Made by a program: the position numbers and the translations under genes
Origin: Chloroflexota bacterium
GTDB taxonomy: Bacteria > Chloroflexota > UBA11872
Assembly (NCBI GenBank): GCA_026708035.1
Contig: JAPOVQ010000014.1
Span: forward strand, 2,826-66,825
Length of the DNA stretch: 64,000 nucleotides
Direction of reading: 5' to 3'
The notes under the pieces: model-generated
The model's input: the letters and a program-made list of their open reading frames with translations, nothing else
The model's database searches: none
Told to the model about the DNA's origin: nothing
Shown: positions 9,610 through 62,075 of the stretch, one piece after another
Numbering within the stretch: the stretch's first letter is position 1
Layout of the letters: each line of letters begins with the position of its first letter

Positions 9610-10635
9610 GTGACCCGACGCGTGCGTAGATTCGACAGCGGTCGTCGAGACACAGGCAAGCGCCGATCGAATGGTCTGCTGAGCAACTCTCGGAGAGCGG
9701 GCTTGGTCGTCGCGTTGGGCTTCCTGTGCCTGGCATGCGGAGAAGCCTCAGCGCCGCCTGTGGCGGCCACGCCAGACGCCTCGCCCGCCACATCTGCGCC
9801 CGCGACCGCGCCAACGCCGACGACCATGGCCAGGCTCGCACCGACACCCACGGTCGAGCCTGAGCCAACGCCTATGCCGGAACCCACGCCGACCTCGACA
9901 CCAGTGCCTACGGCGACGCCCGCGCCGACGCCGGAGCCCACGCCGTCGCCGGAGCCGTCACCCACACCCAGCCCCACGCCGACGCCGGCAGTCACACCAG
10001 CGCCGACGCCCACACTCGAAGCCACGGCGGCCCCGGAGCCCACACCGACACCCGAGCCGTCGCCCACGCCAACGCCGGAACCCACCCCCACGCCCGCGCC
10101 GACCGCGACACCGACGCCCGAACCTACGCCAACGCCCGAACCCACCCCGACTCCGTCGCCGACGCCAACACCGGTACCCACTCCGACACCGACGCCGGAA
10201 CCTACGCCGACTCCCGTGCCCCAACCCACGCCGACGCCCACGCCGGAACCGACGCCGACTCCACAGCCCACTCCGACCCCCGTGCCGCAACCCACCCCAA
10301 CGCCTACGCCCGAGCCCACGCCCACTCCCACCGCGGCGCCAGCCGATCCGGCCTTGGGCGCGACGCTGGTCCGCGCGATTGGCTGCGAGGCGTGCCACAG
10401 CGCCGACGGTTCCGACGGCACCGGGCCCACGTGGCAGGGCGTCTACCTCAGCCGGGTCACGCTGGCCGACGGCTCAACGGTCATCGCCGACGACGCCTAT
10501 CTGCTGCGGGCGATCGTGGACCCCAACGCGGAAGTCGTCGAGGGATACGAAGCGGGCCTGATGCAGGCCGACCTCGACACGTTGCTCTCCCGAGAAGAGC
10601 TGCTGGCGATCGTGGCCTATATCAAGTCGCTGTAG
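9610..10635 (+). CDS. Lipoprotein with a long Pro/Thr/Glu stalk and a C-terminal class I cytochrome c domain
   Basis: Lipobox FLCLAC-G. About 190 aa of PTPEPTPTP repeats. Heme motif GCEACH followed by ...GPTWQGVY...[23 protein letters not shown], which resembles the c domain of caa3 subunit II. GTG start is uncertain. Confidence 0.75.
9760..10350. repeat. Low-complexity coding repeat (Pro/Thr/Glu stalk, cc(n)ac(n)cc(n) periodicity)
   Basis: Reiterated ccgacgcc / gagcccacgcc units. They generate the long spurious antisense ORF 9477..10430 ([11 protein letters not shown]...). Confidence 0.8.
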
Positions 10636-10646
10636 CCCCGACCCGC

Positions 10647-11711
10647 CTACGCGTCGCTGATCGGCAGCGTGATCCGGGCGTTGCCGGCGTGCTGCGAGTG
10701 CAGCGCGGCCAGCAGCACTTCGACGACCTGACGCGAGGTGCGACCGTCCATCGAAGGCCGTCCGCCGTGGTGGATCAGCTGCACCATTTCGTCGACGCAA
10801 CCGGCGATGTGGCCCAGGGTGTACTGGGGTCGGGGAAGGCTGCGCTGATTGAAGTCGCCGCCGTTCTTGACGACGACGGTAGCGTTGCCCGAGTCGTCGA
10901 CGCGCACGATCCCGGCGGTTCCCAAGACCTCCAGCGAGAATACCTGCGGCATGGTTTTGCACATATTCCAGAAGGCGCGCACGCCGTTGTCGAACTCGAC
11001 AACCACTGACATCGCGGGGTCGGTGTCGGGGTCGTGGCCGCCGTCGCTGGCATAGCGCGGGGGGTAGTCCTCGAACCCGGCTTCCGCGATCCCGTAGACC
11101 GCGGTGGGCGTGCCGCCGGCGAACCATAGGATGGTGTCGAACATGTGGGTGCCGTTGCGGAACAGCATCGCGCGCGGACCGCCCTGATTGGCAACAATTC
11201 GTTGCACCTCGCCGATTTCGCCGGACGCGATCACCTCCGCCACCTGCACCCACGGGAACATCCAGCGCCGCGTGTGATCCACCAGCATGGGGACGCCTGC
11301 GGCCTCGACGGCGGCGATCATGCGGTCGGCGTCGGCCAGCGTTGAGGCGATGGGCTTTTCGCAGACAATCCCGCGCACGCCGGCGTCGACCGCGTCGACG
11401 ACGATTTGCGCGTGCCGGTCGTCAGGGGTCGCCACGCTGATCACGTCCAACTGCTCGCGGGCCAGCATTTCGCGGTAGTCGGTGTAGCCGCGCACGTCGG
11501 GCAGCGCGTCGCTCCAGGTGCGGTGAAAGTCGTCCAGCTTCTCGGGCACGATGTCGCACACCGCCACCGGCTCCGTGCCGGCGATGTGGTGATAAGCGGC
11601 GACGTGCGAATGCGGCATATCGAAGCCGGTGCCCGGTCCCGGCCCTGGCGCGGGGCGCTTGGCCCCGATGCCGGTCAGGCCGACCACGCCGGCTCGCAGC
11701 GGATTATTCAT
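10647..11711 (-). CDS. Gfo/Idh/MocA family oxidoreductase
   Basis: N-terminal Rossmann segment (RAGVVGLTGIG), the family signature CEKP (IVCEKPIA), and 354 aa. Confidence 0.85.
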   Translation of the reverse strand: MNNPLRAGVVGLTGIGAKRPAPGPGPGTGFDMPHSHVAAYHHIAGTEPVAVCDIVPEKLDDFHRTWSDALPDVRGYTDYREMLAREQLDVISVATPDDRHAQIVVDAVDAGVRGIVCEKPIASTLADADRMIAAVEAAGVPMLVDHTRRWMFPWVQVAEVIASGEIGEVQRIVANQGGPRAMLFRNGTHMFDTILWFAGGTPTAVYGIAEAGFEDYPPRYASDGGHDPDTDPAMSVVVEFDNGVRAFWNMCKTMPQVFSLEVLGTAGIVRVDDSGNATVVVKNGGDFNQRSLPRPQYTLGHIAGCVDEMVQLIHHGGRPSMDGRTSRQVVEVLLAALHSQHAGNARITLPISDA

Positions 11712-11786
11712 GGAGATTTCCGTCGGTGAGACCGGCGGCGATTGTAGGCGCGTGGCCCACGGCGCGCAGCGGGCGCCGCTAGACGC

Positions 11787-12887
11787 CTACAGCGCGTCGA
11801 TGGCCGCCAGGATGTCGGCGGATGTGATCAAGTCGTAAACGCCGCTGTAAATCGACTTCCAGGCCACGTTCCCGTCGAGATCGACCAGGAATGCCGATCC
11901 CGTGGCGAGGCCGTCGCCGAAGTGATTGAACACGCCGTAGGCCCTGGGCACGTCACCCGCGATGTTGTAGAGCACCGGGAAATCGAGCCCGATTCGCTCA
12001 ATGATGCCGGCGGTGTCTTCCAGCGAGTCGGTGCTGATGGCCAGGATTTCCACGCCGCGCGATTGGAATTCCTGGTAGTTGTTCTGCAGCTCCACGAGCT
12101 GCGTGCGGCAAGCCGTTCACCAGAACGCGCGGTAGAACACCACCACCACCGGCTGCTGTCCCTGGAATGCGCTCAGGGTGTACTGCGGTCCTTGGGCGCT
12201 CGGCAGCGAAAAGTCGACGGCGGCTGCCCTGGCGGGGGCCGGTGCTGACGTCGGGGTCGGGGTTGGCTGCGGTGTGGGCGTCGGTTCCGGCGTAGGGGTC
12301 GGTTGCGGCGTCGGCGTGGACGCAGCCGTCTCGCAAACCACGCCGTCGCCGTCTCGATCCGTCATGTACTCATACGCGGGATGGTCGCTCCTGACCGGGG
12401 CAATCCCGTGCGCGCGCGCTTCGGCGCATGAGATCCGACCGTTGCCGTCGTCGTCATAGAGGTCGAGCGCCGTCGGCGCGGGGGTTGGAGTTGGTGTGGG
12501 TTCCGGAGCGGGCGTGGGCGTCGGCTGCGGCGTTGGCGTCGGCGTGGGTTGGGGTGCGGGCGTCGGAGTCGGCGCCGCCGTCGGTGGCGGCGCTGGAGTG
12601 GACGTGGGTGCGGGCGCCGGGGTCGAGGTCGGTTCGGGAACAGCCGTGGGCGTTGGCGCCGCGGCGATGACTACTACCGGAGTGGGCGCGGGAGTAGCGG
12701 TGGGCGTCGGCGGGCTGGTTGGTGTTGGCGCGGGTGGCGGCGGCGCAGGAGTGTCCGTTGGCGCCGGCGGCGGAGTTGCGGTTGCCGTGGGGGCCACCTC
12801 GGCGGCGGGCTCCACGGGCTCGGCGGCTTCGCCGCACGCAGCCAGGACGACCGCCAACGCGACAACAGCAATGATCCCGACGCGCAC
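11787..12887 (-). CDS. Predicted selenoprotein: lipoprotein with Pro/Thr stalk, Excalibur-like Ca-binding insert and a redoxin (TlpA/ResA/AhpC-TSA superfamily) domain with a U-T-A-C active site (TGA at 12117-12119 read as Sec)
   Basis: Track ORFs 12117..12887 and 11787..12095 are in the same frame. Joined, they read ...[43 protein letters not shown]...FPVLYN...AFLVDLDGN. Lipobox VLAAC-G. GGGAGA lies 6 nt before the GTG at 12887. The paralog has its TGA at the same column. Confidence 0.75.
12086..12102 (-). promoter_or_regulatory. Candidate bacterial SECIS hairpin (GCAGCUC-GUG-GAGCUGC), 14 nt downstream of the UGA at 12117-12119
   Basis: Perfect 7-bp inverted repeat on the mRNA with GU in the apical loop. 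Its position matches bacterial SECIS expectations. The core is conserved in the paralog. Confidence 0.45.
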
Positions 12888-12956
12888 CCGGATTCTCCCG
12901 ACGCTACTTCCCTCGAATTCTACGTCGGAGGCGAGGCCATGGTTTGCCGTGGCTGC

Positions 12957-13514
12957 CTAACAACTGCCCTTTCTAATGAACTCAATGAGCTGACGGATCT
13001 CCTCTTCCGTCAGGTCGGAAAACGCCGGCATGCCATTGCCGCCCTCGGCAAGCTGCGAGCGAATGCGGTCCTCCGGCAGGTCCTCTGGAGTGCGGCAGGC
13101 AAGCGCCGGGCCGATGCCGCCGCTGAGGTCTTCACCGTGGCAGACGGTGCAGCCCTTGGCGATGAAGACCTGATGTCCGGGGGAAAGATCCTCACGAGGG
13201 GGCGGCGTCGGCGTGGGTGTCGGCGTGCCGATCGGGGTCGGTGTCGGGGTTGGAGGGGGTGTGGGAGGTAGCGGGGTGGGCACCTCGTCCGCCGGACGGG
13301 CTGTGGGCGAGGGCTCGAGGGGAGGCGCGATTCGACCCGGTGGGACCATGGCCAGCGAGTGGGCGATGACGGGGGTCGGTTCCGGCGTGGGCACAAGGAG
13401 TGAAAGGCGGCTCGATTCGCCGCAGGCCACGACGCCAACAAGGATTACGCCGCTCAGCAGCGCACATATGGCGCGCCCGAGGCGCGCGGCTCGGCGAGAC
13501 CCGGTGACCTTCAC
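12957..13514 (-). CDS. Monoheme class I cytochrome c lipoprotein with a Pro/Thr stalk
   Basis: Lipobox GVVAC-G. Heme motif GCTVCH. Distal Met in GGNGMPAF. 185 aa. Confidence 0.8.
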
Positions 13515-13566
13515 TTGCCTGCGACGCTCCGCTGAGCGGAGCGGCTCGGATTGCGGCGCCGTCGCT

Positions 13567-14244
13567 CTACAGCTCGTCGATGGCCGCCAGGATGTCGCCC
13601 GACGTGATCAGGTCGTGAACGCCGCTGTAGATCGACTTCCAGGCCAGGTTTCCGTCAAGGTCGACCAGGAACGCCGACCCGGTGGCGAGACCGTCGCCGT
13701 AGAGATTGAAGATCCCGTATTCGCGGGGAACGTTGCCCTCGATGTTGTAGAGCACCGGAAACTGAATGCCGATCCGCTCCACGATGCCGGCGGTGTCTTC
13801 GAGCGAGTCCGTGCTGACGGCGAGGATTTCCACGCCGCGCGCCTGAAACTCTTCGTAGTTCTTTTGCAGCTCCACGAGCTGGGTGCGGCAAGTCCCTCAC
13901 CAGAAGGCGCGGTAGAAGACGACGACCACCGGCTGCTGCCCGGCAAACGAGCTAAGCGTGTACTGCGGGCCCTGGGCGCTCGGCAGCGAGAAGTCCACGG
14001 CGGCCGCCCGCGCCGGGGCCGGCGGCGGGGTCGGCGTGGCGGCCGGCTGTGGCGCCTGCGTGGCAGTCGGCTGCGTCGTTGGCGTGGGCGGAGGCGCGGG
14101 AGTGTCCGTGGCCGTGGGCAGTGCGGGGGCCGCGGTTGCCGCGGGCGCGGCCTCGGCGGCCGGTTCCGGCGGAGCGGTGGTGTCGCCGCACGCCGCTAGG
14201 ACCACCGCCAACGCGATGACCGCGACAATTCCGGCTCGCATCAT
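13567..14244 (-). CDS. Predicted selenoprotein paralog: lipoprotein with a short Pro/Thr/Ala stalk and a redoxin domain with a U-G-T-C active site (TGA at 13897-13899 read as Sec)
   Basis: Track ORFs 13897..14304 and 13567..13875 are in the same frame: ...[43 protein letters not shown].... Likely start is MMRAGIV at 14244, with AGGGAAAG upstream. Lipobox VLAAC-G. Confidence 0.75.
13867..13881 (-). promoter_or_regulatory. Candidate SECIS hairpin (CAGCUC-GUG-GAGCUG) downstream of the UGA at 13897-13899
   Basis: 6-bp perfect stem with the same loop and the same spacing as in the paralog. Confidence 0.4.
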
Positions 14245-14311
14245 GGCTTTCCCTGCGGGTCGCCCCTCGGATTCTACGCCGAGCGCGCGGCCGCGCATTG
14301 TCAATTTGATC

Positions 14312-14878
14312 TCAGGAACTGCGAATAAACTCGATGAGCTGAACGATTTGCTCTTCGGTCAAGTCGGGAAACGGCGGCATGCCGTTGCCGCCCTCGGCGA
14401 GCTGCTGGCGAATGCGCTCCTCGGTTAGATCGTCAACCGTCCGCTCCGCGAGAGCCGGTCCGATGCCGCCGCTCAGGTCTTCGGCGTGGCAGACGGTGCA
14501 GCCATTGGCGATGAAGAGTTGATGGCCGGGGGGCAGGTCGCTGGGCGGCGGCTCCGCCGGAGGCGGCGGGGGCGTCACACCCCCGTCCACGGCCGGTGTC
14601 GGCGTCTCGATCACGACGGGAGTTGGCGCCGCGAGGGTGATCACCGCCTCTGGCGTGCGCGGGGGCGGCGCCGGGGCCAAGTTAGGTGCGGTCCGTCCCG
14701 CTGGGACCATGGCCAGCAGTTGGGCGACGGCCGGGGTCGGTTCAGGGGTGGGCGCGAGACCTGAGAACCTGCCCGATTCGCCGCAGGCCGCGACTACGCC
14801 GGCGAGGATGGCGCCGCCCAGAAACGCGCAAATGGCGCCCCCGAGGCGCGCGATTCGTCGGGACCCGATGACTTGCAT
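14312..14878 (-). CDS. Monoheme class I cytochrome c lipoprotein with a Pro-rich stalk (paralog of 12957..13514)
   Basis: Likely start MQVIGSRRIARLGG at 14878. Lipobox VVAAC-G. Heme motif GCTVCH. Distal Met in GGNGMPPF. The track ORF extends to 14932. Confidence 0.8.
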   Translation of the reverse strand: MQVIGSRRIARLGGAICAFLGGAILAGVVAACGESGRFSGLAPTPEPTPAVAQLLAMVPAGRTAPNLAPAPPPRTPEAVITLAAPTPVVIETPTPAVDGGVTPPPPPAEPPPSDLPPGHQLFIANGCTVCHAEDLSGGIGPALAERTVDDLTEERIRQQLAEGGNGMPPFPDLTEEQIVQLIEFIRSS

Positions 14879-14964
14879 TGACCTGCGTTGCTCCGCTGAA
14901 CGGCGCCGCTCCGATCGCGGCGCCGGCGCCATGGTATTACGTCGGGCGGGTTGCTTCAGCGCGG

Positions 14965-18080: not shown

Positions 18081-18329
18081 ATGACGCCGCCGCTTCGTGT
18101 GCGTGTGCGACCCTACGCGGACCTTGCCCGCTACTTTCCGGGCACCGGCGCGGTGCGGGAGGTTGACGTGCCGGCGGGAGCCACGATCCAGGATCTCCTC
18201 GAACGCTTCGGCGTCGATGCCGAGCCGCGCCTCACGCTTGGCCTGAACGGCGAGCTGGCGCAGCGTGACGCCGCGCTGGCGCCTGGCGACCTGGTCGACA
18301 TCCTCGTCCCGATGTCGGGCGGCATGTAG
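18081..18329 (+). CDS. MoaD/ThiS-family ubiquitin-like sulfur carrier protein ending ...SGG-M
   Basis: 82 aa with the beta-grasp-type pattern (LRVRVRPYADLARYF...VDVPAGATIQDLL...LNGELA...GDLVDILVPMSGGM). Its stop lies 2 nt before the AOR ATG. Confidence 0.7.
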   Translation: MTPPLRVRVRPYADLARYFPGTGAVREVDVPAGATIQDLLERFGVDAEPRLTLGLNGELAQRDAALAPGDLVDILVPMSGGM

Positions 18330-18331
18330 TC

Positions 18332-20197
18332 ATGGCACGCTCCGCCGGCTCGACGCGCCGGCGCTTCCTCCGCGTTGATCTGACCACCGGCCGCGTGCGG
18401 GTCGAGCGACCCGGGCATGACTTCATGCGGCTGCACATGGGCGGGCGCAACGTCATCGCCCACACGCTGCTTTCGGAAGTCCCACCGGGGATCGACGCGT
18501 TCGATTCCGAAAATCGCCTCGTGTTCGCGCTCGGCCCCATCACCGGCGTTTCCGTTCCCGGGGGCAGCCGTCACAGCGTGGGCGCCAAATCGCCGCTCAC
18601 TGGCCTCTTCGGTGAGTCCGAGGCCGGCGGGTATTGGGGCGCCGAGCTCAAGCGGGCCGGCTGGGACGCCATCATCGTGCAGGGGCGGGCGGCGCATCCG
18701 GTATATCTCTGGGTCCACGGCGACGAGGTCGCGCTGCGCGACGCCCGGCCGCTGTGGGGCAAGTTGACTGGACCGGTGGAAGACCGAATCCGGACGGAAC
18801 TCGCCGACCCACAGGTGCGCGTGGCCCAGATCGGTCCTGCCGGCGAGAACCTCGTGCGATTCGCCTGCGTCGTCCACGACCTGAATGAGGTGGCCGGTCG
18901 AACCGGCCTGGGCGCCGTGATGGGATCGAAGAACCTCAAGGCCATTGCCGTGCGCGGCACGCAGCCGGTGTCCGCGGCCGATCCACGGGCGATTGCCGGG
19001 GTGGCGCGCTGGGTGGCCCAGGAGACGCTCGCGCCCGGTGGTGAGCACCATCGGCTCCACACGTGGGGCACCGGCGCCATGGTCAAATCCAAGCTGCTGG
19101 AGGGCCACCTCGTGGCTCACAACTTCCGCGACGGCCGGCTGCCGGGCGGTGACCAGGTGGACGCCCTGGCCATTCAAGATCTCACCGACCACGAGATGGA
19201 TCGCTGCTACGCGTGCTCCGTCCGCTGCAAGAAACGCGTCAGGGTCAGGCGTCCCGACCTCGAGGTCGATCCCAAATACGGCGGTCCGGAGTACGAGACG
19301 ATGGCCGCCATCGGCCCCAACACCGGCGTGGTCGACGTCATGGCCGTCTGCAAGGGCCATGAAATGCTCAACGCGCTGGGCATGGACAGCATTTCCTGCG
19401 GCGCGACGATCGCGTGGGCCATGGAGATGGTCGAGCTCGGCCTGCTGGATGAGCACCGGCTCAACGGCGAGACGCTGCGTTTCGGATCCGCCGACGACTT
19501 GCTGCGCGTGATCGGCAAGATCGCTAGCCGCGAGGGCGTGGGCGACCTGCTGGCCGAGGGCTCGCTGCGAGCGTCGCGCACTCTCGGCGCGGATGCCGAG
19601 GCGAGGGTCGTCCACGTCAAGGGGCTCGAGGTCGCCATGCACGATCCGCGCGCGATGCCCGAGATGCGCCGCAACTACCCGGTCACCCCGACCGGCGGTG
19701 ACCACACCGGCGCCGCGGGCAAGCGCTCCGGAATTCGCAACACGGTCGGTCTATGCCACTTTCTGCAATACGACGAGGCCACGACCCTGAGCCTGCTGAA
19801 CGCAGCCACGGGCTGGGACGTCTCACCGGACGAGCTGCACGCGACCTTCGAGCGCGGCGTCACCATGGCGCGGCTCTTCAACCTCCGCGAAGGACTAAAG
19901 CCGGAAGACGACCGGCTCCCGGACCGCCTGCACGAGCCGCTGCGACAGGGGCCGCTGTACGACCGTCGGCTCAGCCGGGACACCGTCAGGGACGACGTGA
20001 GGGCCTACTATCGCGACCACGGCTGGGACCCGACGACCGGGCGCCCCTATGCCGACACCGTCGAATACCTCGGACTTGGTTCGCTTGCCAAGGCGGCGCA
20101 AGCCACGGAGTTCGTCGCGGAGCGCCGCGAGCCGATTCCGGCCGGACGACGGCCCTACGCGCCACAGCCTGAGGAGGTCGGCGCCATAGGCGAATAG
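18332..20197 (+). CDS. aor: Aldehyde:ferredoxin oxidoreductase family (tungsto/molybdopterin) enzyme
   Basis: 621 aa. The N-terminal block is RFLRVDLTTGRV...GGRNV.... The [4Fe-4S] ligand motif is CYACSVRC plus a later GLCHF. EYETM and DSISCG blocks are also present. Confidence 0.9.
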   Translation: MARSAGSTRRRFLRVDLTTGRVRVERPGHDFMRLHMGGRNVIAHTLLSEVPPGIDAFDSENRLVFALGPITGVSVPGGSRHSVGAKSPLTGLFGESEAGGYWGAELKRAGWDAIIVQGRAAHPVYLWVHGDEVALRDARPLWGKLTGPVEDRIRTELADPQVRVAQIGPAGENLVRFACVVHDLNEVAGRTGLGAVMGSKNLKAIAVRGTQPVSAADPRAIAGVARWVAQETLAPGGEHHRLHTWGTGAMVKSKLLEGHLVAHNFRDGRLPGGDQVDALAIQDLTDHEMDRCYACSVRCKKRVRVRRPDLEVDPKYGGPEYETMAAIGPNTGVVDVMAVCKGHEMLNALGMDSISCGATIAWAMEMVELGLLDEHRLNGETLRFGSADDLLRVIGKIASREGVGDLLAEGSLRASRTLGADAEARVVHVKGLEVAMHDPRAMPEMRRNYPVTPTGGDHTGAAGKRSGIRNTVGLCHFLQYDEATTLSLLNAATGWDVSPDELHATFERGVTMARLFNLREGLKPEDDRLPDRLHEPLRQGPLYDRRLSRDTVRDDVRAYYRDHGWDPTTGRPYADTVEYLGLGSLAKAAQATEFVAERREPIPAGRRPYAPQPEEVGAIGE

Positions 20198-30385: not shown

Positions 30386-30898
30386 TTAGCTCTCCCTCAC
30401 CGGCTGCTCGGCGGCCTGAAAGTCGCCGCTCGCGCCACCGGACTTTTGTATGAGGCGCACGTCGCGCACGGTCATCGCGCGGTCGACGGCTTTGCACATG
30501 TCGTAGACCGTCAGCGCGGCGACGGTGACGGCGGTCAAGGCCTCCATCTCCACGCCCGTGCGGGCAGTGGTGCGCACCGTGGCTTCGATGGCCAGCCCCG
30601 GCGGGTCCTCCGCGGGATCGATGGCCAGGTCAATGCCGCTCAGCGGCAGCGGGTGGCACAGCGGAATGAGGTCCGGCGTGCGCTTGGCCGCCATGATCCC
30701 GGCCACCCGCGCCACGCCCACGACATCGCCCTTTGGCAACGACGACTCGCGGCCGTCCAACTGCGCGCGAATCATGGCCAGCGTTTCGGGCTGCATCTCG
30801 ATTCGCGCCGCCGCCACCGCCACGCGGTCGGTCTCTGGTTTTGCGCCGACATCCACCATGCGCGGAGCCCCGGCACCGTCGAAGTGCGTCAGCCCCAT
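30386..30898 (-). CDS. moaC: Cyclic pyranopterin monophosphate synthase MoaC
   Basis: MGLTHFD...MVDVGAK...DLIPLCHPL...[19 protein letters not shown]. The ATG at 30896-30898 gives the typical length of about 170 aa. The track ORF extends to 31057. Confidence 0.9.
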
Positions 30899-31244
30899 GC
30901 GTGCTTGGTGGACTCCCTTGGACGCGATGAACCGGCCGAATTCTCCCGGGACCAATTCTATCAGGTTGGCCGCGGAAATCGGCATCGCCCGGCGCTTGGC
31001 GGCGGCGCCGCGCACGAGAGCCGGAGGCGACGATTGGCGGCCTGGCGGCGAGCCCATGAATTGTCGGGATTTTGTTGCTGCAAACGCCCCCGTAGGCGGT
31101 GCGGGTCACCTTCCCAGGTCCGCATGGCGTAACTCGGAAAGCCGGATGCTCACCGCTGCCGGCGGCCCGAGGGTCGTACGCCCCGCCGCGACGCGGGCGG
31201 TCCTAGCGGGCGGCTCGGGAACGCGTGTGGTCGGCAGGCCCGCG

Positions 31245-41350: not shown

Positions 41351-41584
41351 ATGATGGTTAAGCCGCGCGTGAAGTTCTCTAGCCAGGCCGACCCGGAATT
41401 GCTGGCGGCGATGCGTCAGATCGCGCGCAACGACTGCCGCCACTTCCAGGCCGTGTTGGAAGACGCCATGACCCACTACATCGAAAGCCGGGCGAGCCAG
41501 CGGGTCCGGCCCGAGGTCATGGCGCACTTCCAGGCGAGCCTTGAAAAGAATCGGCGACTCGGGGAGTTGCTGGGCAAATCGTGA
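41351..41584 (+). CDS. Ribbon-helix-helix-type antitoxin (partner of Doc)
   Basis: 77 aa. The beta-strand/helix/helix pattern VKFSSQADPELLAAMRQIA...FQAVLEDAMTHYI fits RHH. It has a strong SD, and its stop overlaps the GTG of the downstream Doc gene. Confidence 0.6.
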   Translation: MMVKPRVKFSSQADPELLAAMRQIARNDCRHFQAVLEDAMTHYIESRASQRVRPEVMAHFQASLEKNRRLGELLGKS

Positions 41585-41967
41585 CCAGTAACTTTCCGAC
41601 GGTCGAGGAAGTCGTGGCGATCCATGACATTGCCGTCGACGAATTCGGCGGCTCCTTGGGGCTTCGTGATGCGGGCGCCTTGGAGTCCGCCATCATGCGC
41701 CCGCAGCTGGGCTACTACGACGGAGTCCTCGACGAGGCCGCCGCGCTCCTGGAAAGCCTGGCCATGAATCACCCCTTCGTGGACGGCAACAAGCGCACGG
41801 CCTTCTTCGCAACCGACACGTTTCTGCGCAAGAACGGCCGTTTCATCGATTGCGACAACGATGAGGCCTACGCCTTCATCATGCAGTTGTTCGCCACGAA
41901 CTCATTCCGCTTTGCCCAGCTGCGCGAGTGGCTCGAGGAGAAGGTCAGGCCGTTCAGGGAGCCTTGA
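41581..41967 (+). CDS. doc: Doc (death-on-curing) Fic-family toxin
   Basis: 128 aa with the diagnostic HPFVDGNKRTAF motif. Confidence 0.85.
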   Translation: MTSNFPTVEEVVAIHDIAVDEFGGSLGLRDAGALESAIMRPQLGYYDGVLDEAAALLESLAMNHPFVDGNKRTAFFATDTFLRKNGRFIDCDNDEAYAFIMQLFATNSFRFAQLREWLEEKVRPFREP

Positions 41968-45539: not shown

Positions 45540-45786
45540 GTTGGAGACCTCATAAAGCGGATGCTTGCGCCGGATTTGGCGCGGTGCTGCTCGTCGGTCG
45601 CGGCCACGTTAGGCGACTCTACCACAGAGCCTCCGAGTTTCCCTATCAGTACAAACTTACCGACGATGTCACGGTCCGCAGCAGATCGGGCGCAAAAGGT
45701 CGCAGCCTGGTGATGCATTGGACCACTGCGAATGTTTGGACGTTGGGGCGCTGGAGCGATGCGCAAGGGGCGCTCACGCGCGGAGG

Positions 45787-45860
45787 TGGGCGCGATAGGA
45801 CTCGAACCTATGACCTCGCGGATGTGAACCGCGCGCTCTGACCAGCTGAGCTACGCGCCC
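45787..45860 (-). tRNA. tRNA-Val (anticodon CAC)
   Basis: The reverse complement folds as a cloverleaf. Acceptor GGGCGCG/CGCGCCC, D arm GCTC-AGCTGGTCA-GAGC, anticodon arm CGCGG-TTCACAT-CCGCG, T arm ATAGG-TTCGAGT-CCTAT. CCA is not encoded. Confidence 0.9.
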
Positions 45861-45869
45861 GTGAGCGAG

Positions 45870-47159
45870 TCATGGTATCAGCGTGGCCGGTTGGGACAGC
45901 AGCAGCATTTCTCGCTCGTCCAGGGCGATCACGGACACCGGATCGCCGGCTTTGATCACGGCGCCTTCGGCTAGCACCGCCAGGCCGTTGCCCTGGGTCA
46001 TCGAGGTCAGGCGGAACGAATCTTGCTCACCGGCGGGCGCGCACACGAGCTCGTCGCCCTCTCGGCGCACGGTCACCCGCACGTAGGTACGCTTTCCGCT
46101 GGAACTGCGCATAGGCTCCAGGGCGCGTGGTTGAACCATGGGATTCACCAGGCGCGAGTGCCCCATCAGCTTGAGCAGCGCGGGACGCACGAACAGCTCG
46201 AAGCAGACCATGCTCGACACGGGGTTCCCGGGCAGGCCGATCACGGGCGTGCCGTCGATTTCCCCGAAGGCCAGGGGCTTCCCGGGTCGCATGTTGATCT
46301 GCCAGAAGTTCATGCGTCCGGCCGAGGCGATCACGTCTCGCACCAAGTCGTAGTCGCCCATCGACACGCCGCCAATGGTGACCAAGAGGTCGGCGTCGCG
46401 GCCATGCCGGATGGCGGCGCGCAGGCCGGCCTCGGTGTCGGGGGCGATCGGGAGGCGCTCGGCAATTGCGCCGTAGCGCCGTGCAAGCGCGGTCAGGCCC
46501 CACGCATTGCTATTGCGCACCTGCCCCGGAGCGATCGGATCGCCGACCTCCACGATTTCATCGCCGGTCGGAAGGATTGCGACTCGGGCGCGCGGGTGGA
46601 CGCGAACCTCGGTGACGTCCACCGAAGCCAGCACGCCGACGTGGGCGGCGTCCAGCAGGCGGCCCTCCGGAGCGACGACATCGCCCTTGGCGACATCGCC
46701 CCCGCGCCGTCGAATGTTCTCGCCCGGCTCGGCGGTTTCCAGGACACGAACCTCGCCGTTGGCCTCCCCTGACTCTTGGGCCCAGTGCACGCCGTCCGTG
46801 TCCTCGAACGGAAGCACGGCATCGGCGCCCGGCGGAATGGGCGCCCCCGTCATGATCCGCGCCGCGGTTTCCGGCTCGACGTGCACTTCGCCCGCTTGGC
46901 CTGCGGCGACCTCACCGACCACGCGCAGCGACACGCCGGCATCCGCCCGCGCACTCGCGACGTCCGCCGCCCGCAGGGCGTATCCGTCAAAGGCCGAGTT
47001 GTCGAATCCAGGCACGTCGACCTGGGAGGTCACGTCTTCCGCGGTAACCAGCCCGTGAACCTCGGCGAGACCCAACGAAACCGGGGCCAGCGGCTTCACG
47101 GCGGCCAGAATGCGCGTGCGCGCCTCGTCAACGGACAGAAACGTGTCGGTGCCGGGCAC
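45870..47159 (-). CDS. moeA: Molybdopterin molybdotransferase MoeA
   Basis: 429 aa. VPGFDNSAFDGYA, the ...GGVSMGDYD... block, and LPGNPVS. Confidence 0.9.
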   Translation of the reverse strand: MPGTDTFLSVDEARTRILAAVKPLAPVSLGLAEVHGLVTAEDVTSQVDVPGFDNSAFDGYALRAADVASARADAGVSLRVVGEVAAGQAGEVHVEPETAARIMTGAPIPPGADAVLPFEDTDGVHWAQESGEANGEVRVLETAEPGENIRRRGGDVAKGDVVAPEGRLLDAAHVGVLASVDVTEVRVHPRARVAILPTGDEIVEVGDPIAPGQVRNSNAWGLTALARRYGAIAERLPIAPDTEAGLRAAIRHGRDADLLVTIGGVSMGDYDLVRDVIASAGRMNFWQINMRPGKPLAFGEIDGTPVIGLPGNPVSSMVCFELFVRPALLKLMGHSRLVNPMVQPRALEPMRSSSGKRTYVRVTVRREGDELVCAPAGEQDSFRLTSMTQGNGLAVLAEGAVIKAGDPVSVIALDEREMLLLSQPATLIP

Positions 47160-47237
47160 TGTCCCAGAGTCTGCGGCTTGCTGCGTCCACCAGTTTAGAC
47201 CCCGACGCCTCGCCTATGCTTGAGCAAAGGAGCGCAC

Positions 47238-47675
47238 ATGCCCGGCAACACAGGATGCGCGCGCGGCCATGCCACATTCGATCACACGGCGGACATCGGG
47301 CTCGAGGCGTGGGGGCCGTCATTCGGCGAGGCGCTTGCCGAGGCAGGACTGGGCCTCCAGGCCATCGTGCTTCACGGCGGCACCGTTCGCGCCCGGGATA
47401 CGCGAACGTTTCGGGTCGCCGCCGAGGATGCGGGCGCACTCGTGGTGGCCTGGCTCAGCGAGCTGCTCTATGCCTTGGATGTTAATGGTTGGCTGTCGGC
47501 GAGCTTTGAGGTTTCAGTCGACGAAGGATTCCGGCTCTCCGCCACCGCCCATGGCGAGACGCTTGACGAAGCGCATCATCTACTCGGCGTGGGTGTGAAA
47601 GCCGTGAGCTACCACGAGCTGGCCGTGCAGTGTGAATCGGACGCCGTGCGCATCCGGGTGATCGTGGATGTCTAG
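47238..47675 (+). CDS. Archease (RtcB activator)
   Basis: FDHTADIGLEAWG at the N-terminus and VKAVSYHELAV near the C-terminus. It sits immediately upstream of rtcB. Confidence 0.8.
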   Translation: MPGNTGCARGHATFDHTADIGLEAWGPSFGEALAEAGLGLQAIVLHGGTVRARDTRTFRVAAEDAGALVVAWLSELLYALDVNGWLSASFEVSVDEGFRLSATAHGETLDEAHHLLGVGVKAVSYHELAVQCESDAVRIRVIVDV

Positions 47676-47687
47676 CCTGAGGTCGCC

Positions 47688-49202
47688 GTGAGCGCGTCGC
47701 GCCGCCGGAAGCGCCCGCGCGGGCGGGGGGCGGGGCCGCCGGCATCGGGCCCCGACGCCTCGCAGCTCGAGCGCCTCGACCAGTTCCGCTGGCAGATTCC
47801 GACGAGCTACAAGGCCGGAATGCGAGTGCCGGGCGTCATCTACTCGTCCGAAACCATGCTTCCGACGGTCTTATCCGACAAACCCCTGGAGCAGCTGGCC
47901 AACGTCACGTTCCTGCCCGGGATCGTCGGGCACGCCTTGGCCATGCCGGACGTGCATTGGGGCTACGGGTTTCCCGTCGGCGGCGTGGCGGCGACGGATG
48001 TGCGCGACGGCGTGATATCGCCGGGAGGCATCGGGTTTGACATCAACTGCGGCGTGCGGCTCATTCGTACGAACCTCACCGAGGGAGAGCTCCGCCCACG
48101 TCTCAAGGACGCGCTGGACGCACTGTTCCGCGCCGTGCCTGCCGGCATGGGGACCAAGGGCCGCATCCGCCTGACGCACAAGAACATGGATCGGGTGCTG
48201 CGCCGCGGCGCCGCGTGGGCCGTCGACCAAGGGCTCGGCTGGCCCGAGGACCTCGAGGTTGCCGAGGAGGGCGGCGCCCTTGCCGGGGCCGATCCCAAGG
48301 CGGTGTCGGCGCGGGCCAAAGAGCGCGGCGCCGGCCAACTCGGCACCCTGGGCTCGGGGAATCACTTCCTGGAGTTGCAGGTCGTCGATGAGGTATTCGA
48401 TCCATCCGCCGCGTCGGCGCTTGGGATCGAGCAGCCGGGAACCGTCGTCGTCTTCCTGCACACCGGTTCCCGTGGCTGCGGCCACCAGATCTGCCAGGAC
48501 TACTTGCAGACATTCGCCCAGGCGCCGTCGAGTCGCGCGATCGAGTTGCCCGATCGCCAGCTGGCGTGCGCCCCCTTGCGCTCGCCGGAAGGGCAGGACT
48601 ACCTGGCGGCCATGGCGTGCGGCGCGAACTTCGCCTGGGCGAATCGACAGGCGATCACGCACTGGACGCGCGAGGCGCTCTCGGGTGTATTTGGCCGCTC
48701 GGCGCGATCACTCGGCATGGAGGTGGTGTACGACGTGGCGCACAACATCGCGAAAATCGAAGAGCACGTCGTTGACGGTGAGGTGCGCCGCGTCTGCGTG
48801 CACCGCAAGGGCGCCACGCGCGCTTTCCCACCCGGACACCCTGAGCTTCCGAGCAAATACCGGGACGTCGGGCAACCGGTGTTCATCCCTGGCGACATGG
48901 GGCGGGCGTCCTATGTGGCCGTCGGCACGGCGGGCGCGATGGAGCAGTCCTTCGGCTCCACCTGTCACGGCGCCGGCCGCGTCCTCAGCCGCTCCGCGGC
49001 GCGCCGGCGGCTACGAGGGGTGAACATGGTCGAGCGGCTTGCCGCCTTGGGCGTCGGCGTTCGCGCGCGCAATCCTCGGCTGCTCAGCGAAGAAGCTCCC
49101 GACGCCTACAAGAACGTGACCGATGTGACCGCCATCACCCACGGCGCGGGAATCTCCCGCAATGTGGCCCGGCTGCGGCCCGTGGGCGTGATCAAAGGCT
49201 AG
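47688..49202 (+). CDS. rtcB: RNA 3'-phosphate ligase RtcB
   Basis: GMRVPG, MPDVHWGYGFPVGG, GFDINCGVR, LGSGNHFLE, AHN and CHGAGR. GTG start with an Arg-rich N-terminal extension. Confidence 0.9.
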   Translation: MSASRRRKRPRGRGAGPPASGPDASQLERLDQFRWQIPTSYKAGMRVPGVIYSSETMLPTVLSDKPLEQLANVTFLPGIVGHALAMPDVHWGYGFPVGGVAATDVRDGVISPGGIGFDINCGVRLIRTNLTEGELRPRLKDALDALFRAVPAGMGTKGRIRLTHKNMDRVLRRGAAWAVDQGLGWPEDLEVAEEGGALAGADPKAVSARAKERGAGQLGTLGSGNHFLELQVVDEVFDPSAASALGIEQPGTVVVFLHTGSRGCGHQICQDYLQTFAQAPSSRAIELPDRQLACAPLRSPEGQDYLAAMACGANFAWANRQAITHWTREALSGVFGRSARSLGMEVVYDVAHNIAKIEEHVVDGEVRRVCVHRKGATRAFPPGHPELPSKYRDVGQPVFIPGDMGRASYVAVGTAGAMEQSFGSTCHGAGRVLSRSAARRRLRGVNMVERLAALGVGVRARNPRLLSEEAPDAYKNVTDVTAITHGAGISRNVARLRPVGVIKG

Positions 49203-49530: not shown

Positions 49531-49602
49531 TCCTCGGTAGCTCAATGGTAGAGCGTGCGGCTGTTAACCGCAGGGTTGCAGGTTCGAGTCCTGCCCGAGG
49601 AG
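49531..49602 (+). tRNA. tRNA-Asn (anticodon GTT)
   Basis: Cloverleaf fold. Acceptor TCCTCGG/CCGAGGA, D arm GCTC-AATGGTA-GAGC, anticodon arm TGCGG-CTGTTAA-CCGCA, T arm GCAGG-TTCGAGT-CCTGC. CCA is not encoded. Confidence 0.9.
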
Positions 49603-49696
49603 CCGATTGCCCGAGCCTGCTTCCTGGTGCCCCACTCGGCTGAATCGCCAGGCGCAATCGACAGTCCTTGGGCGATCCCATGCTTGCGACCTGCTG

Positions 49697-60370: not shown

Positions 60371-61078
60371 TCAGGCGATGTCCGCGATCACTTCCTCGAT
60401 GCGCCCGCGGATGGACTCGAAGGTCTGCGTAATTGGTCCGCGCGCGTCCACCACGTCGAAGCTATGGATACCGGCCAGCTCGCGAAGTTGCCGGATCATG
60501 TCCGTCTGGTAGGCGATATAGGTCGAATGCGGATCGGTTCCCTTCAGAAAGTCTTGCCCCGATTCCCAGTAGTCGATGTTTCCGGCGTGCAGGGCGCGCG
60601 GCAGGAGCTGATCCACATCGACATCGAGATAAATCACTTTGTCAGGGATCGGGGCGAACGAATAGAGCCCGTCCATCCACTCACGCGGCATGCCTCGCAC
60701 ACCCGCCCGCGCGATGAGCGAGTAGAAGTAGCGGTCGGCGAGCACCACCATTCCGGCGCGGGCCGACGGCAGGATCACCCGCTCCAGGCGGTCGCAGAAG
60801 TCGGTGGCGTAAAACAGGTTGAGCGTCACGGCGTCCAACCGGTGCCCCGTCTTGGCCCGGTCAATGCCGCGCCCGGCCAGGTCGGAGCGGGTGAGTCCGG
60901 TATCCACGGCTGGAACTCCCATGTCCTCCAGCCACTCCTTGATCAGCCGGATATGGGTCGAACGTCCGGCGCCGTCGGGGCCTTCGAAAACGATGATGCG
61001 ACCCAGCACCTCGCGGTCGTGCCATCCGGTAGGCGGCTCCCCATAGAAGCGCAACACGCGCGCCTGCCGGTTTCTCAT
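60371..61078 (-). CDS. Thymidylate kinase-like P-loop kinase, paralog B
   Basis: P-loop FEGPDGAGRST. DRY-type motif LADRYFYS. 235 aa. Confidence 0.7.
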   Translation of the reverse strand: MRNRQARVLRFYGEPPTGWHDREVLGRIIVFEGPDGAGRSTHIRLIKEWLEDMGVPAVDTGLTRSDLAGRGIDRAKTGHRLDAVTLNLFYATDFCDRLERVILPSARAGMVVLADRYFYSLIARAGVRGMPREWMDGLYSFAPIPDKVIYLDVDVDQLLPRALHAGNIDYWESGQDFLKGTDPHSTYIAYQTDMIRQLRELAGIHSFDVVDARGPITQTFESIRGRIEEVIADIA

Positions 61079-61833
61079 CGTCGGGCGCCGAGCGTGTCCA
61101 GGTAACGCCCCGTGAGTCCCGATGTCGTGAGGGCGTCCGCCAGGCCGCCGTCTTGAATCTTGAGCGCCCCGCCGACGTGGGGCTCAACAAGCTCGCGGAC
61201 TTTGTGCTGCTGCTCGGTGGGCGGGGCGGTCGCATCGATGGAGATCAGCCCAAACTCATCAAGCATCCGCTCGTATTCGGTTTGGATCATGCCTTGAAAC
61301 GCCTGGAACGACCGGTTGAGATCGCTGCTCAGGCCGAGGTCCATGCCGGCTTCGTAGTACTTCAGCCGCGCACGACCGTCCTCGATTCGTCGAATTGCCT
61401 CCGGCAATGGAACGTCGAAGTAGAACGCCATGGTCGGCTTCGGGGCGAAGGCGTAGAGGTGGCGCAGCCAAACGGGGTTGACACCGCGGGCGGCGTCACG
61501 CGCGAACGCCGTATAGATATAGCGGTCGGCAAGCACCGTGGCCCCGGCCTGGAGCGCCGGGATGATCTGCTCGTGGACCCGGTTTGCCAGGTCCGCGCAG
61601 TGGATGAGACTGAACGTCATGGGGGAAAACAAGCGACGCCGTTTTCCTCGGCGCGTGGTACCGCGGACGATCGGCGACGAATTCCACTCGCTGGACACCA
61701 CCAGCACGCCGCGGCTGGTCAGCCACTTGTGGAGCAGGTCGAGCTGCGTGCTCTTGCCGGAGCCGTCGATCCCTTCCACAACGAACAAGCGCCCCGGAAA
61801 CGGTCCGGGCTGCATGCCGTCGTCGTCCGACAT
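61075..61833 (-). CDS. Thymidylate kinase-like P-loop kinase, paralog A
   Basis: P-loop VEGIDGSGKSTQ and LADRYIYT. Its stop overlaps the start of paralog B (ATGA at 61075-61078). The start at 61833 (MSDDDGMQPG...) is preferred; the track ORF extends to 61977. Confidence 0.7.
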   Translation of the reverse strand: MSDDDGMQPGPFPGRLFVVEGIDGSGKSTQLDLLHKWLTSRGVLVVSSEWNSSPIVRGTTRRGKRRRLFSPMTFSLIHCADLANRVHEQIIPALQAGATVLADRYIYTAFARDAARGVNPVWLRHLYAFAPKPTMAFYFDVPLPEAIRRIEDGRARLKYYEAGMDLGLSSDLNRSFQAFQGMIQTEYERMLDEFGLISIDATAPPTEQQHKVRELVEPHVGGALKIQDGGLADALTTSGLTGRYLDTLGARR

Positions 61834-62075
61834 CACCGGCGCGCGGCGGCTCGACGGCGCGGGTGAGCCACCGTCCGACGGGCCGTCGGCTCCTTCGGCG
61901 CTGGCTGCACGCCCCGTGCCTCGGCGACTTCGCGCCACCCATGCCCGCAAGAGGCCAGCGAGTCCGGCGAGTCTCACGGCGTGGTCCTCGAAGGGCGGCG
62001 TGGGGCTTATATGATAGTCGGCCCGCGCTGACAGATCGGGGTGCAGAGAGGCTTCGTGCGGTTCATGCTTGAGCT

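Follow-up and report, generated by a model that had tools for sequence, protein, structure and literature searches.

The window, a 64,000-nucleotide stretch of DNA from a Chloroflexota bacterium, carries on its minus strand two redoxin genes, each of which has a gene for a c-type cytochrome upstream. Gene 1 and its paralogue each contain a single in-frame TGA, located within FYRAFW-[TGA]-x-x-C.

11787..12887, minus strand: predicted selenoprotein gene 1, 366 codons as a single reading frame through the TGA; lipoprotein signal, Pro/Thr-rich stalk with an Excalibur domain, and Prx-like UxxC domain
12834..12887, minus strand: signal peptide of gene 1 with lipobox L-A-A-C, read from the sequence
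12330..12431, minus strand: Excalibur calcium-binding domain in the stalk of copy 1 but not of copy 2 (Pfam PF05901, E 8.6e-10, residues 153-186)
11859..12224, minus strand: AhpC-TSA (peroxiredoxin-fold) domain of gene 1, spanning the TGA (Pfam PF00578, E 1.5e-28, residues 222-343)
12117..12119, minus strand: predicted Sec codon of gene 1, an in-frame TGA in the motif W-U-T-A-C
12086..12102, minus strand: SECIS-like hairpin of gene 1, GCAGCUC-GUG-GAGCUGC; it begins 15 nt past the UGA, and its loop begins 21 nt past it
12957..13514, minus strand: mono-haem c-type cytochrome (CxxCH), immediately upstream of gene 1; it has a lipobox-like signal (VVAC) and a linker rich in Pro and Thr (Pfam Cytochrome_CBB3, E 2.7e-12)
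13567..14244, minus strand: predicted selenoprotein gene 2, paralogous to gene 1; short stalk; start ATG at 14244 or 14241
13897..13899, minus strand: predicted Sec codon of gene 2, an in-frame TGA in the motif W-U-G-T-C
13867..13881, minus strand: SECIS-like hairpin of the paralogue, CAGCUC-GUG-GAGCUG
14312..14932, minus strand: second mono-haem c-type cytochrome, upstream of gene 2, with a likely start at ATG 14878 (Pfam Cytochrome_CBB3, E 1e-11)

Reading frame and architecture of the two loci

The open reading frame finder breaks gene 1 into two pieces, 12117..12887 and 11787..12095. The 21 nt joining them are in frame and encode T-A-C-R-T-Q-L, and the minus-strand frame continues past the TGA to a TAG at 11787. 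The split, its coordinates, and the shared frame of the pieces, as given in the preliminary description, were all confirmed; reading the minus-strand frame also located the TGA of the paralogue (13897-13899) in the matching column, as had been described. The start codon of gene 1 is a GTG at 12887 with GGGAG upstream. The 12 nt that precede the internal GTG at 12095 (CGCACGCAGCTC) contain no Shine-Dalgarno-like purine run, in agreement with the proposal that the downstream piece has no ribosome-binding site of its own. In many orthologues, the codon matching this GTG is GGN, which cannot serve as a start.

In Pfam searches of both proteins, U was written as C. The paralogue, like gene 1, matches AhpC-TSA (E 9.3e-29). 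The idea that gene 1 encodes a stalked lipoprotein held up: a lipobox and a Pro/Thr-rich stalk can be read in the sequence, and the signal recurs among orthologues. The signal of copy 2 ends in ...ALAVVLAAC, and both copies, which match the lipobox pattern [LVI][ASTVI][GAS]C, are predicted to be lipoproteins. Among orthologues, 39 of 76 N-termini match the strict pattern; by eye, nearly all orthologues show a hydrophobic stretch with A-C-G/S after it.

Alignments with peroxiredoxins place the TGA opposite the Thr of T-x-x-C and the second Cys opposite the peroxidatic Cys, the arrangement by which the published Prx-like UxxC family is delimited. The active-site Pro, Thr, and Arg of peroxiredoxins are missing; where AhpE and an actinobacterial Prx have them, the window protein has Arg, Sec, and Gly, respectively. 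A structural model of a Cys orthologue (P0179), which serves as a proxy for the window protein, has a mean pLDDT of 89 and finds its best fold match in AhpE; comparison with M. tuberculosis AhpE gave a target-normalised TM score of 0.91 and an rmsd of 1.7 Å. The active-site context had been assigned to redoxins of the TlpA/ResA/AhpC-TSA superfamily. The AhpC-TSA match and the alignment with WCxxC bear out this assignment in part, but the fold is nearer to peroxiredoxins than to TlpA/ResA. A canonical peroxiredoxin (AhpE/BCP/PrxQ) was considered and rejected: the modelled fold would agree, but the P-x-x-x-T/S-x-x-C motif and the catalytic Arg are absent.

Conservation of the TGA and of a downstream hairpin

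The TGA column was compared in 92 homologous loci from other assemblies (39–94% identity), comprising 12 Chloroflexota/Dehalococcoidia genome loci (46–94%) and 80 marine metagenome loci (39–88%). The codon is TGA in 12/12 of the former and 80/80 of the latter and, because it is TGA in all 92, its retention is far above chance. Complete chromosomes with the TGA form include OZ253558.1, OZ244789.1, CBDEVI010000002.1, OZ252238.1, and OZ241880.1. Both flanks of the TGA are under purifying selection in the frame of the gene (dN/dS < 0.3), with dN/dS of 0.03–0.13 over the 36 codons before it and 0.11–0.26 over the 109 codons after it. An identical C-terminal piece is present on eight contigs; the four listed represent four independent samples, all with the matching split, and an assembly error, which the preliminary description had named as a possible source of the TGA, is excluded.

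Some homologues have Cys in this column, among them a form on a 2.23-Mb contig (ERZ25069326 ctg78828). When the exact C-terminal 109 residues were used as query, C-x-x-C occupied the TGA column in 36 full-length proteins among the best 149 representatives of 50%-identity clusters (e.g., FYRAYWCSACRRQL and FYRAFWCTNCREQL). Alignment with B. subtilis ResA (PDB 1ST9; BLASTP E 1e-13) sets the TGA opposite the first Cys of WCEPC. The ResA alignment and the CxxC relatives both bear out the original suggestion that the TGA takes the place of the first Cys in the redox motif. The gene for the Cys orthologue P0179 lies in a neighbourhood of TyrRS, aminotransferase, redoxin, and DUF1015, as is seen around distant TGA forms.

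A hairpin with a stem of 5–7 bp follows the UGA, and synonymous covariation retains its pairing. Across 65 distinct sequences, pairing holds in 89.9% of cells, compared with at most 50.8% when the partners are slid by 1–3 columns. Pair 27/37 is A-U in 37 sequences, G-C in 20, and G-U in 8, and is broken in none. RNAalifold independently recovers the identical helix. The stem is largely dictated by the conserved peptide Q-L-x-E/K-L, and codon choice was examined in 33 low-GC3 genes. The Glu/Lys codon of the stem is GAG or AAG in 33/33, against 32% G-ending elsewhere in the same genes, and the first stem Leu is CTN in 33/33, against a 30% share of TTR among Leu codons elsewhere; the second stem Leu is CTG or TTG in 29/33. 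The third base of the Gln codon and the first base of the Leu codon covary inside each GC class (Fisher 9e-5 and 3e-7), with P-values that overstate independence because the sequences used are mutually related. Two Cys-form genes do not have the hairpin codon pattern. The apical loop starts with G in 66 of 67 distinct sequences, and the next base is U or G.

The hairpins described here resemble bacterial SECIS elements (E. coli fdhF type; bSECISearch consensus) in their position immediately 3′ of the UGA and within the coding sequence, and in a loop that opens ∼21 nt past the UGA with G and then U or G, but differ in that the stem is very short (5–7 bp) and the bulged U is absent. Rfam returned no SECIS or tRNA-Sec match (gathering thresholds for the whole window; E up to 10 for 11700-14400). 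The preliminary description had recommended a SECIS search over 12060-12119; what emerged is a SECIS-like hairpin, conserved with covariation and codon bias, that matches no Rfam model. The 76 nt after each TGA are no more stable than shuffled sequences (z = −0.23 and +0.65). The hairpin is evident solely through comparative analysis and not through folding of single sequences. Taken from sequence comparison, it has the features of a bacterial SECIS element, and we infer a role in binding SelB.

Decoding of the UGA

It is highly probable, in our view, that neither locus is split: each would encode one selenoprotein, exported and anchored by lipid, with the UGA read as Sec via the SECIS-like hairpin. 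No selA, selB, selD, or tRNA-Sec was found within the 64-kb window (selA and selB were sought by Pfam, in the window only). In 166 sequence records (165 fetched loci and the window; 1.06 Mb), ARAGORN yielded no tRNA-Sec, and a tblastn search with the E. coli protein yielded no SelD. As a protein query, E. coli SelD retrieved Enterobacteria only among the 120 matches listed, a tblastn search of a plasmid collection yielded no Chloroflexi SelD, and SelD of Anaerolinea (PMC4561486 supplement) retrieved only Anaerolineae-like proteins. Cultured Chloroflexi (Anaerolinea, Caldilinea, and Dehalogenimonas) have SelA, a Sec-containing SelD, and 5–7 selenoproteins each (PMC4561486 supplement).

The sequence evidence presented here fits Sec and Cys at the UGA alike. 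Insertion of Cys would involve a selC* tRNA-Cys (UCA anticodon, tRNA-Sec-like) working with a SelB-type factor at the hairpin, and the product would carry C-x-x-C. Systems of selC* tRNA-Cys(UCA), selB*, and cysS* have been described, with a tRNA that suppresses UGA with Cys in E. coli, and unusual 8/4 tRNA-Sec structures occur in Chloroflexi (PMC5389517). However, selC* systems have been reported in Deltaproteobacteria and in a small number of further groups that do not include Chloroflexi, and the complete Sec apparatus is always present alongside them (PMC5389517). Furthermore, a Cys product needs only TGC or TGT, yet all 92 loci have TGA, and the orthologues with a Cys codon have no hairpin. 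We regard decoding as Cys as very unlikely. It is likewise hard to credit that the TGA is a real stop, which would leave either two polypeptides, the stalk being exported and the C-terminal fragment staying in the cytoplasm, or a pseudogene or assembly artefact. Gene callers annotate a stop in every public record found, which is the truncation that had been foreseen for standard callers, and in-frame GTG and TTG codons occur soon after the TGA. Such a break would, however, interrupt the redox motif of a single thioredoxin-fold domain, across which the AhpC-TSA match runs; the earlier judgement that a split into two genes at the active site is implausible is well founded. A signal peptide is present on the first piece alone, which would put the halves in different compartments, and the internal GTG has no ribosome-binding site and is GGN in many orthologues. 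Decay is excluded by the purifying selection acting on the TGA and both flanks across 39–94% identity, and the agreement of independent assemblies argues against an artefact.

Genome-wide reassignment of UGA (to Trp or Gly, for example) or near-cognate read-through in the absence of a dedicated signal would also carry translation across the codon, but its probability is negligible. Codes of this kind occur in other bacterial lineages, and TGA is a less-used stop in the window, ending 13 of 47 genes versus 29 for TAG. It is nevertheless an ordinary stop in those 13, closing the complete MoeA and ClpB genes, as well as those for an MMPL transporter and an ABC ATPase, at their expected ends. Trp or Gly at the redoxin codon would destroy a redox motif in which relatives have Cys. 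When the window was scanned for frames crossing a TGA with coding-like GC3, no other convincing frame, and no further selenoprotein candidate, emerged beyond the two redoxins; the remaining hits were rejected as adjacent genes or antisense frames.

Proposed function and relation to known families

If the two genes encode selenoproteins, the UGA would be translated by virtue of the short hairpin 15 nt downstream, which would act as a bacterial SECIS and recruit SelB with Sec-tRNA(Sec), so that Sec becomes the first residue of U-x-x-C. The predicted product consists of a lipoprotein signal, a long Pro/Thr-rich stalk (with Excalibur in copy 1), and a domain of peroxiredoxin fold in which a thioredoxin-type U-x-x-C takes the place of the lost Pro/Thr/Arg active site. 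The signal, stalk, and UxxC domain together point to action outside the cytoplasmic membrane. There, the target of the selenol would be a substrate disulfide or a peroxide, and the resulting intermediate would be resolved, as a selenylsulfide, by the Cys three positions further on. The activity of the protein would be that of a thiol/selenol-disulfide oxidoreductase or of a GPx-like peroxidase.

In this lineage, each copy may cooperate with the membrane-tethered c-type cytochrome encoded ahead of its gene. A cytochrome c neighbour is present at 9/9 close loci versus 0/45 distant loci, and pairing with cytochrome c was rejected as a family-wide trait; since the neighbour is limited to the close clade, it has little bearing on the function of the whole family. 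The neighbours of distant orthologues (TyrRS, class-V aminotransferase, and DUF1015) give no hint of function. The duplicated cassette of lipoprotein cytochrome c and lipoprotein UxxC protein in sponge-associated Chloroflexota might be a new extracytoplasmic redox module with the cytochrome as direct electron partner, a suggestion that we consider unlikely. Mitochondrial Erv1 hands electrons to cytochrome c and, by analogy, a thiol/selenol oxidation pathway could feed the respiratory chain. A module of this type would differ from a ResA-like helper in cytochrome maturation.

In the public protein collections searched, all close relatives appear as two fragments broken at the TGA and labelled "hypothetical" or "peroxiredoxin," and no NCBIfam model scores up to its cutoff. 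A clade of predicted exported selenoproteins is therefore mis-annotated in those collections, and the error touches the whole clade, in marine and sponge-associated Chloroflexota. The TGA in all 92 loci, the small covarying hairpin, and the Cys orthologues that share a neighbourhood and have no hairpin make this a clean natural test case, both for the minimal requirements of a bacterial SECIS and for the retention of Sec over Cys in an extracellular redox enzyme. General knowledge of selenoproteins is left unchanged by two redoxin genes.

Among proteins of solved structure, the best sequence match is the 1-Cys peroxiredoxin AhpE (Rv2238c; PDB 1XXU and 4X0X; E ∼1e-9). AhpE has P-x-x-x-T-x-x-C where the window protein has R-A-F-W-U-T-A-C, its catalytic Arg (NRGTF) corresponds to Gly here (TGSAF), and it is cytoplasmic, whereas the protein described here has an export signal. 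ResA, TlpA, and CcmG resemble it in being membrane-tethered and extracytoplasmic (as is predicted here) and in having a motif of the W-C-x-x-C type; the likeness to ResA extends to the c-type cytochrome genes that adjoin the gene here. Membership of the ResA or TlpA families was rejected, with NCBIfam scores of 52 bits against a cutoff of 170 for ResA and 27.9 against 230 for TlpA. No ccdA, resB, or resC was found among the window genes scanned, and the adjacent genes are structural genes for c-type cytochromes only. The SelL-related proteins (NF040769) share a peroxiredoxin scaffold with C/U-x-x-C/U and the absence of other peroxiredoxin catalytic residues, and the family motif FYRGxWCxxCRxQL is present in many Cys relatives; the NF040769 score is 49.9 bits against a cutoff of 120. 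The same combination of scaffold, C/U-x-x-C/U, and absent catalytic residues is a feature of the PRX_like2 group (CDD cd02970), another candidate relative.

The closest correspondence is with the Prx-like pfam00578 UxxC proteins, an established family of predicted selenoproteins (PMC1088965, PMC2398784, PMC13188914), and the preliminary description was right to treat redoxin/Prx-like UxxC proteins as an established class. Zhang and Gladyshev named the family "Prx-like protein" in their Sargasso Sea study and "Prx-like 1" in their GOS study; it is plentiful in marine metagenomes, its function is a predicted one (PMC1088965, PMC2398784, PMC13188914), and its exemplar is WP_010940744.1 from Geobacter. 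Shared with the genes described here are pfam00578, distant homology to peroxiredoxins, and a thioredoxin-like U-x-x-C where selenoprotein Prx has T-x-x-U. In the parts of these papers covered by a term-based search, no mention was found of a lipoprotein signal with a Pro/Thr stalk, of c-type cytochromes as partners, or of a clade in Chloroflexota/Dehalococcoidia. Judged by its published description, both genes fit the Prx-like thiol:disulfide oxidoreductase (UxxC) family; the selenoprotein type is already known, and the two genes would be further members of it.

Reading frame and conservation of the in-frame TGA

The redoxin genes and their neighbors in the window are:

14932..14312, minus strand, cytochrome c (mono-haem CxxCH), before redoxin 2
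14244..13567, minus strand, redoxin 2, TGA at 13899..13897 (motif W-[TGA]-GTC)
13514..12957, minus strand, cytochrome c (mono-haem CxxCH), before redoxin 1
12887..11787, minus strand, redoxin 1, TGA at 12119..12117
11711..10647, minus strand, GFO/IDH/MocA oxidoreductase, after redoxin 1

Redoxin 1 is a single frame that opens with GTG at 12887, closes with TAG at 11787, and has one in-frame TGA, at which the ORF finder splits it into exactly the halves reported in the preliminary description; the split-gene observation is confirmed. The paralog said to carry TGA in the same column was found, with its break, 1.8 kb upstream. Both genes end in TAG. Over the redoxin-domain coding region (the final 444 nt, from 12230 in copy 1 and 14010 in copy 2 to the stop codons), about one position in six differs. 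When the TGA was written as Cys, Pfam AhpC-TSA spanned the break (E = 1.5e-28 for copy 1, 9.3e-29 for copy 2) and Pfam Redoxin also matched.

Among 5.8 billion predicted proteins, relatives of at least 45% identity were present solely as halves (C-terminal pieces of 92–108 residues and N-terminal pieces ending ...FW), which bears out the suspicion that gene callers truncate such genes; full-length relatives in the same search reached at most 39% identity. At the DNA level, TGA stood in the motif FYRA[FY]W-*-x-x-C in 12/12 Chloroflexota/Dehalococcoidia species genomes (46–94% identity) and in 80/80 marine metagenome loci (39–88% identity). The C-terminal piece of the window gene recurs on eight contigs; four of these, each from an independent sample, share its layout, so an assembly error, named at the outset as a possible refutation, is excluded. 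Compared with nine relatives, dN/dS was 0.03–0.13 over the 36 codons upstream of the TGA and 0.11–0.26 over the 109 codons downstream; both sides are translated in this frame. The TGA is conserved and no accident. Two related metagenome contigs (L155 and L157) have a second in-frame stop, TAA replacing the CAA Gln codon five codons past the TGA (TFCRR*LGKLQ), on the 5' side of the hairpin described below; a pseudogene, a sequencing error, or some other cause may lie behind it.

HMMER was run against 1.84 billion cluster representatives with exactly the 109 residues that follow the TGA as query, and 149 of the best 150 matches were read. Fragments of at most 140 residues that begin at or just after the motif, i.e., further truncated forms, made up 74 of the 149. 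The anticipated Cys at the TGA column was present in 36 full-length C-x-x-C representatives (e.g., FYRAYWCSACRRQL, FYRAFWCTNCREQL, FYRGxWCxxCRxQL); nine had S-x-x-C, two had T-x-x-C, and 28 were unclassified by motif pattern. The neighborhood of TyrRS, a 366-residue class-V aminotransferase, the redoxin, and DUF1015 on the opposite strand is common to distant TGA forms and the Cys form P0179 (loci L016, L147, L111, L106, L145, and L166), which makes P0179 a positional ortholog. At L166 and L132 a second, uninterrupted AhpC-TSA paralog adjoins the first; that of L166 reads as a C-x-x-C lipoprotein.

A SECIS-like hairpin and the meaning of UGA

A SECIS-like hairpin lies downstream of the TGA. 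If numbering begins at the U of UGA, bases 18–24 pair with 28–34 (GCAGCUC-GUG-GAGCUGC in copy 1), so that the stem begins 15 nt and the loop 21 nt past the UGA. Pairing held in 89.9% of cells in 65 distinct sequences, versus at most 50.8% with partners shifted by one to three columns, and RNAalifold independently yielded the same core helix. The pair between base 3 of the Gln codon and base 1 of the second Leu codon, both synonymous sites, is A-U in 37 cases, G-C in 20, G-U in 8, and A-C in none. This association is present within both low-GC3 genes (Fisher, 9e-5) and high-GC3 genes (Fisher, 3e-7), values that overstate independence because the sequences share kinship, and GC content was rejected as its cause. 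In 33 low-GC3 genes, stem codon choice also runs counter to usage in the rest of the same genes:

Codon choice in the hairpin stem of 33 low-GC3 genes
Glu/Lys codon: GAG or AAG in 33/33; elsewhere G-ending codons are 32% of Glu/Lys codons
First Leu codon: CTN in 33/33; elsewhere TTR is 30% of Leu codons
Second Leu codon: CTG or TTG in 29/33; elsewhere 35% of Leu codons

The loop opens with G in 66/67 distinct sequences. The stem codon pattern is broken in two Cys-form genes (CAG TTG AAC GAA CTT and CAA CTA GAG GAT CTA). By the standard of bacterial SECIS elements, as in E. coli fdhF and the bSECISearch consensus, the hairpin has a typical position, a typical loop, and an unusually short stem. 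None of the Rfam models fits the hairpin.

UGA is the ordinary stop of 13/47 window genes, including complete MoeA and ClpB, which excludes a changed genetic code. Stop usage in these 47 heuristic genes is TAG 29, TGA 13, and TAA 4, at a genome GC of 66.8%; TGA normally prevails at such a GC content, and the dominance of TAG is unusual. Recoding of UGA to Sec by a SECIS-type mechanism is, we predict, very probable, and the overall selenoprotein call draws support from TGA conservation, the Cys relatives, and the hairpin. True termination at the UGA, as the gene callers have it, is set against translation of both flanks and is highly improbable. Insertion of Cys, the residue of the full-length C-x-x-C relatives, is given equally little weight, and other explanations take up the small remainder.

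No selA, selB, selD, or tRNA-Sec was found in the 64-kb window, nor tRNA-Sec or SelD in 1.06 Mb of fetched homologous loci plus window. The Sec trait is documented within the phylum: the supplement of PMC4561486 lists SelA, a Sec-containing SelD, and 5–7 selenoproteins each for Anaerolinea thermophila, Caldilinea aerophila, and Dehalogenimonas lykanthroporepellens. Unusual tRNA-Sec structures are on record for Chloroflexi (PMC5389517). Among the matches listed from the public protein collection, Anaerolineae SelD entries are mostly 313–329 residues long, without the N-terminal active-site segment, consistent with their being systematically cut short at a Sec codon of their own.

Gene surroundings

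The minus-strand order is acetyl-CoA synthetase, cytochrome c, redoxin 2, cytochrome c, redoxin 1, and GFO/IDH/MocA oxidoreductase. Positions 11787-14932 (-) hold a tandem duplication of a [lipoprotein cytochrome c + UxxC redoxin] cassette; both cytochromes have a lipobox-like signal and a Pro/Thr-rich linker. Intergenic gaps are 52–75 nt, and a consensus scan of the region found no terminator-like site in them, its only match (13446-13464) lying within a cytochrome c gene. The cassette was kept in 9/9 loci of the close, sponge-associated clade and missing in 45/45 distant TGA orthologs, so it is a lineage feature and cytochrome c pairing was rejected as a family trait. Neither ccdA nor resBC was among the scanned window genes.

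A third c-type cytochrome (9610-10635, +), convergent with the GFO/IDH/MocA gene, has a very long Pro/Thr/Glu-rich linker and long, spurious Gly/Val-rich ORFs in its antisense frames. Elsewhere in the window are:

18081-20197 (+), ThiS/MoaD-like small protein directly upstream of the gene for an aldehyde:ferredoxin oxidoreductase (AFOR)
30386-31057, MoaC
41351-41967 (+), small ORF with a 4-nt overlap with a Fic/DOC-family gene, toxin-antitoxin-like layout
45870-47159, MoeA
47220-49202 (+), archease and RtcB RNA ligase pair, located between tRNA-Val (45785-45860) and tRNA-Asn (49531-49604)
60371-61977 (-), tandem thymidylate-kinase-like genes, 4-nt overlap

Architecture and comparison with known families

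Copy 1 has a lipoprotein-type signal and a Pro/Thr-rich stalk of ~200 residues with an Excalibur calcium-binding domain, in keeping with its earlier description as a stalked lipoprotein; stalk and domain are consistent with an extracytoplasmic location. The strict lipobox pattern occurs in 39/76 ortholog N-termini; judged by eye, nearly all show a hydrophobic segment that leads into A-C-G/S and then into a low-complexity linker, whose length varies.

The closest solved structures are those of AhpE from M. tuberculosis (E about 1e-9) and ResA from B. subtilis (E about 2e-8). The AlphaFold model of P0179 (mean pLDDT 89; at least 95 over the domain) matches AhpE with a target-normalized TM of 0.91, and ResA-like proteins rank below it. 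In the model, the first Cys directly precedes a helix and the second lies in its first turn. The TGA corresponds to the Thr of the P-x-x-x-T-x-x-C of AhpE and actinobacterial peroxiredoxins and the next Cys to their peroxidatic Cys. Their Pro is replaced by Arg and their catalytic Arg by Gly; in ResA, the first Cys of WCEPC occupies the TGA column. The protein is a peroxiredoxin scaffold with a thioredoxin-type U-x-x-C, and a canonical peroxiredoxin is ruled out. All NCBIfam families scored below cutoff (ResA, 52 bits versus 170; SelL-related, 49.9 versus 120; WAxxUGC, 31 versus 300).

Redoxin/Prx-like UxxC selenoproteins are, as the preliminary description held, an established class. The "Prx-like" family was described from the Sargasso Sea (PMC1088965), "Prx-like 1" comprises 225 sequences in GOS data (PMC2398784), and a 2026 review grades the family "predicted with high confidence" (PMC13188914). 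The genes here share both its stated characters, pfam00578 and the thioredoxin-type U-x-x-C motif. To this family they add a Chloroflexota/Dehalococcoidia clade with TGA in 92/92 homologous loci sampled, a lipoprotein architecture, a defined hairpin backed by covariation, same-neighborhood Cys orthologs without the hairpin, and a cytochrome c cassette in a sponge-associated lineage. Their main value is as an annotation correction and a clean natural test case for Sec/Cys and SECIS.
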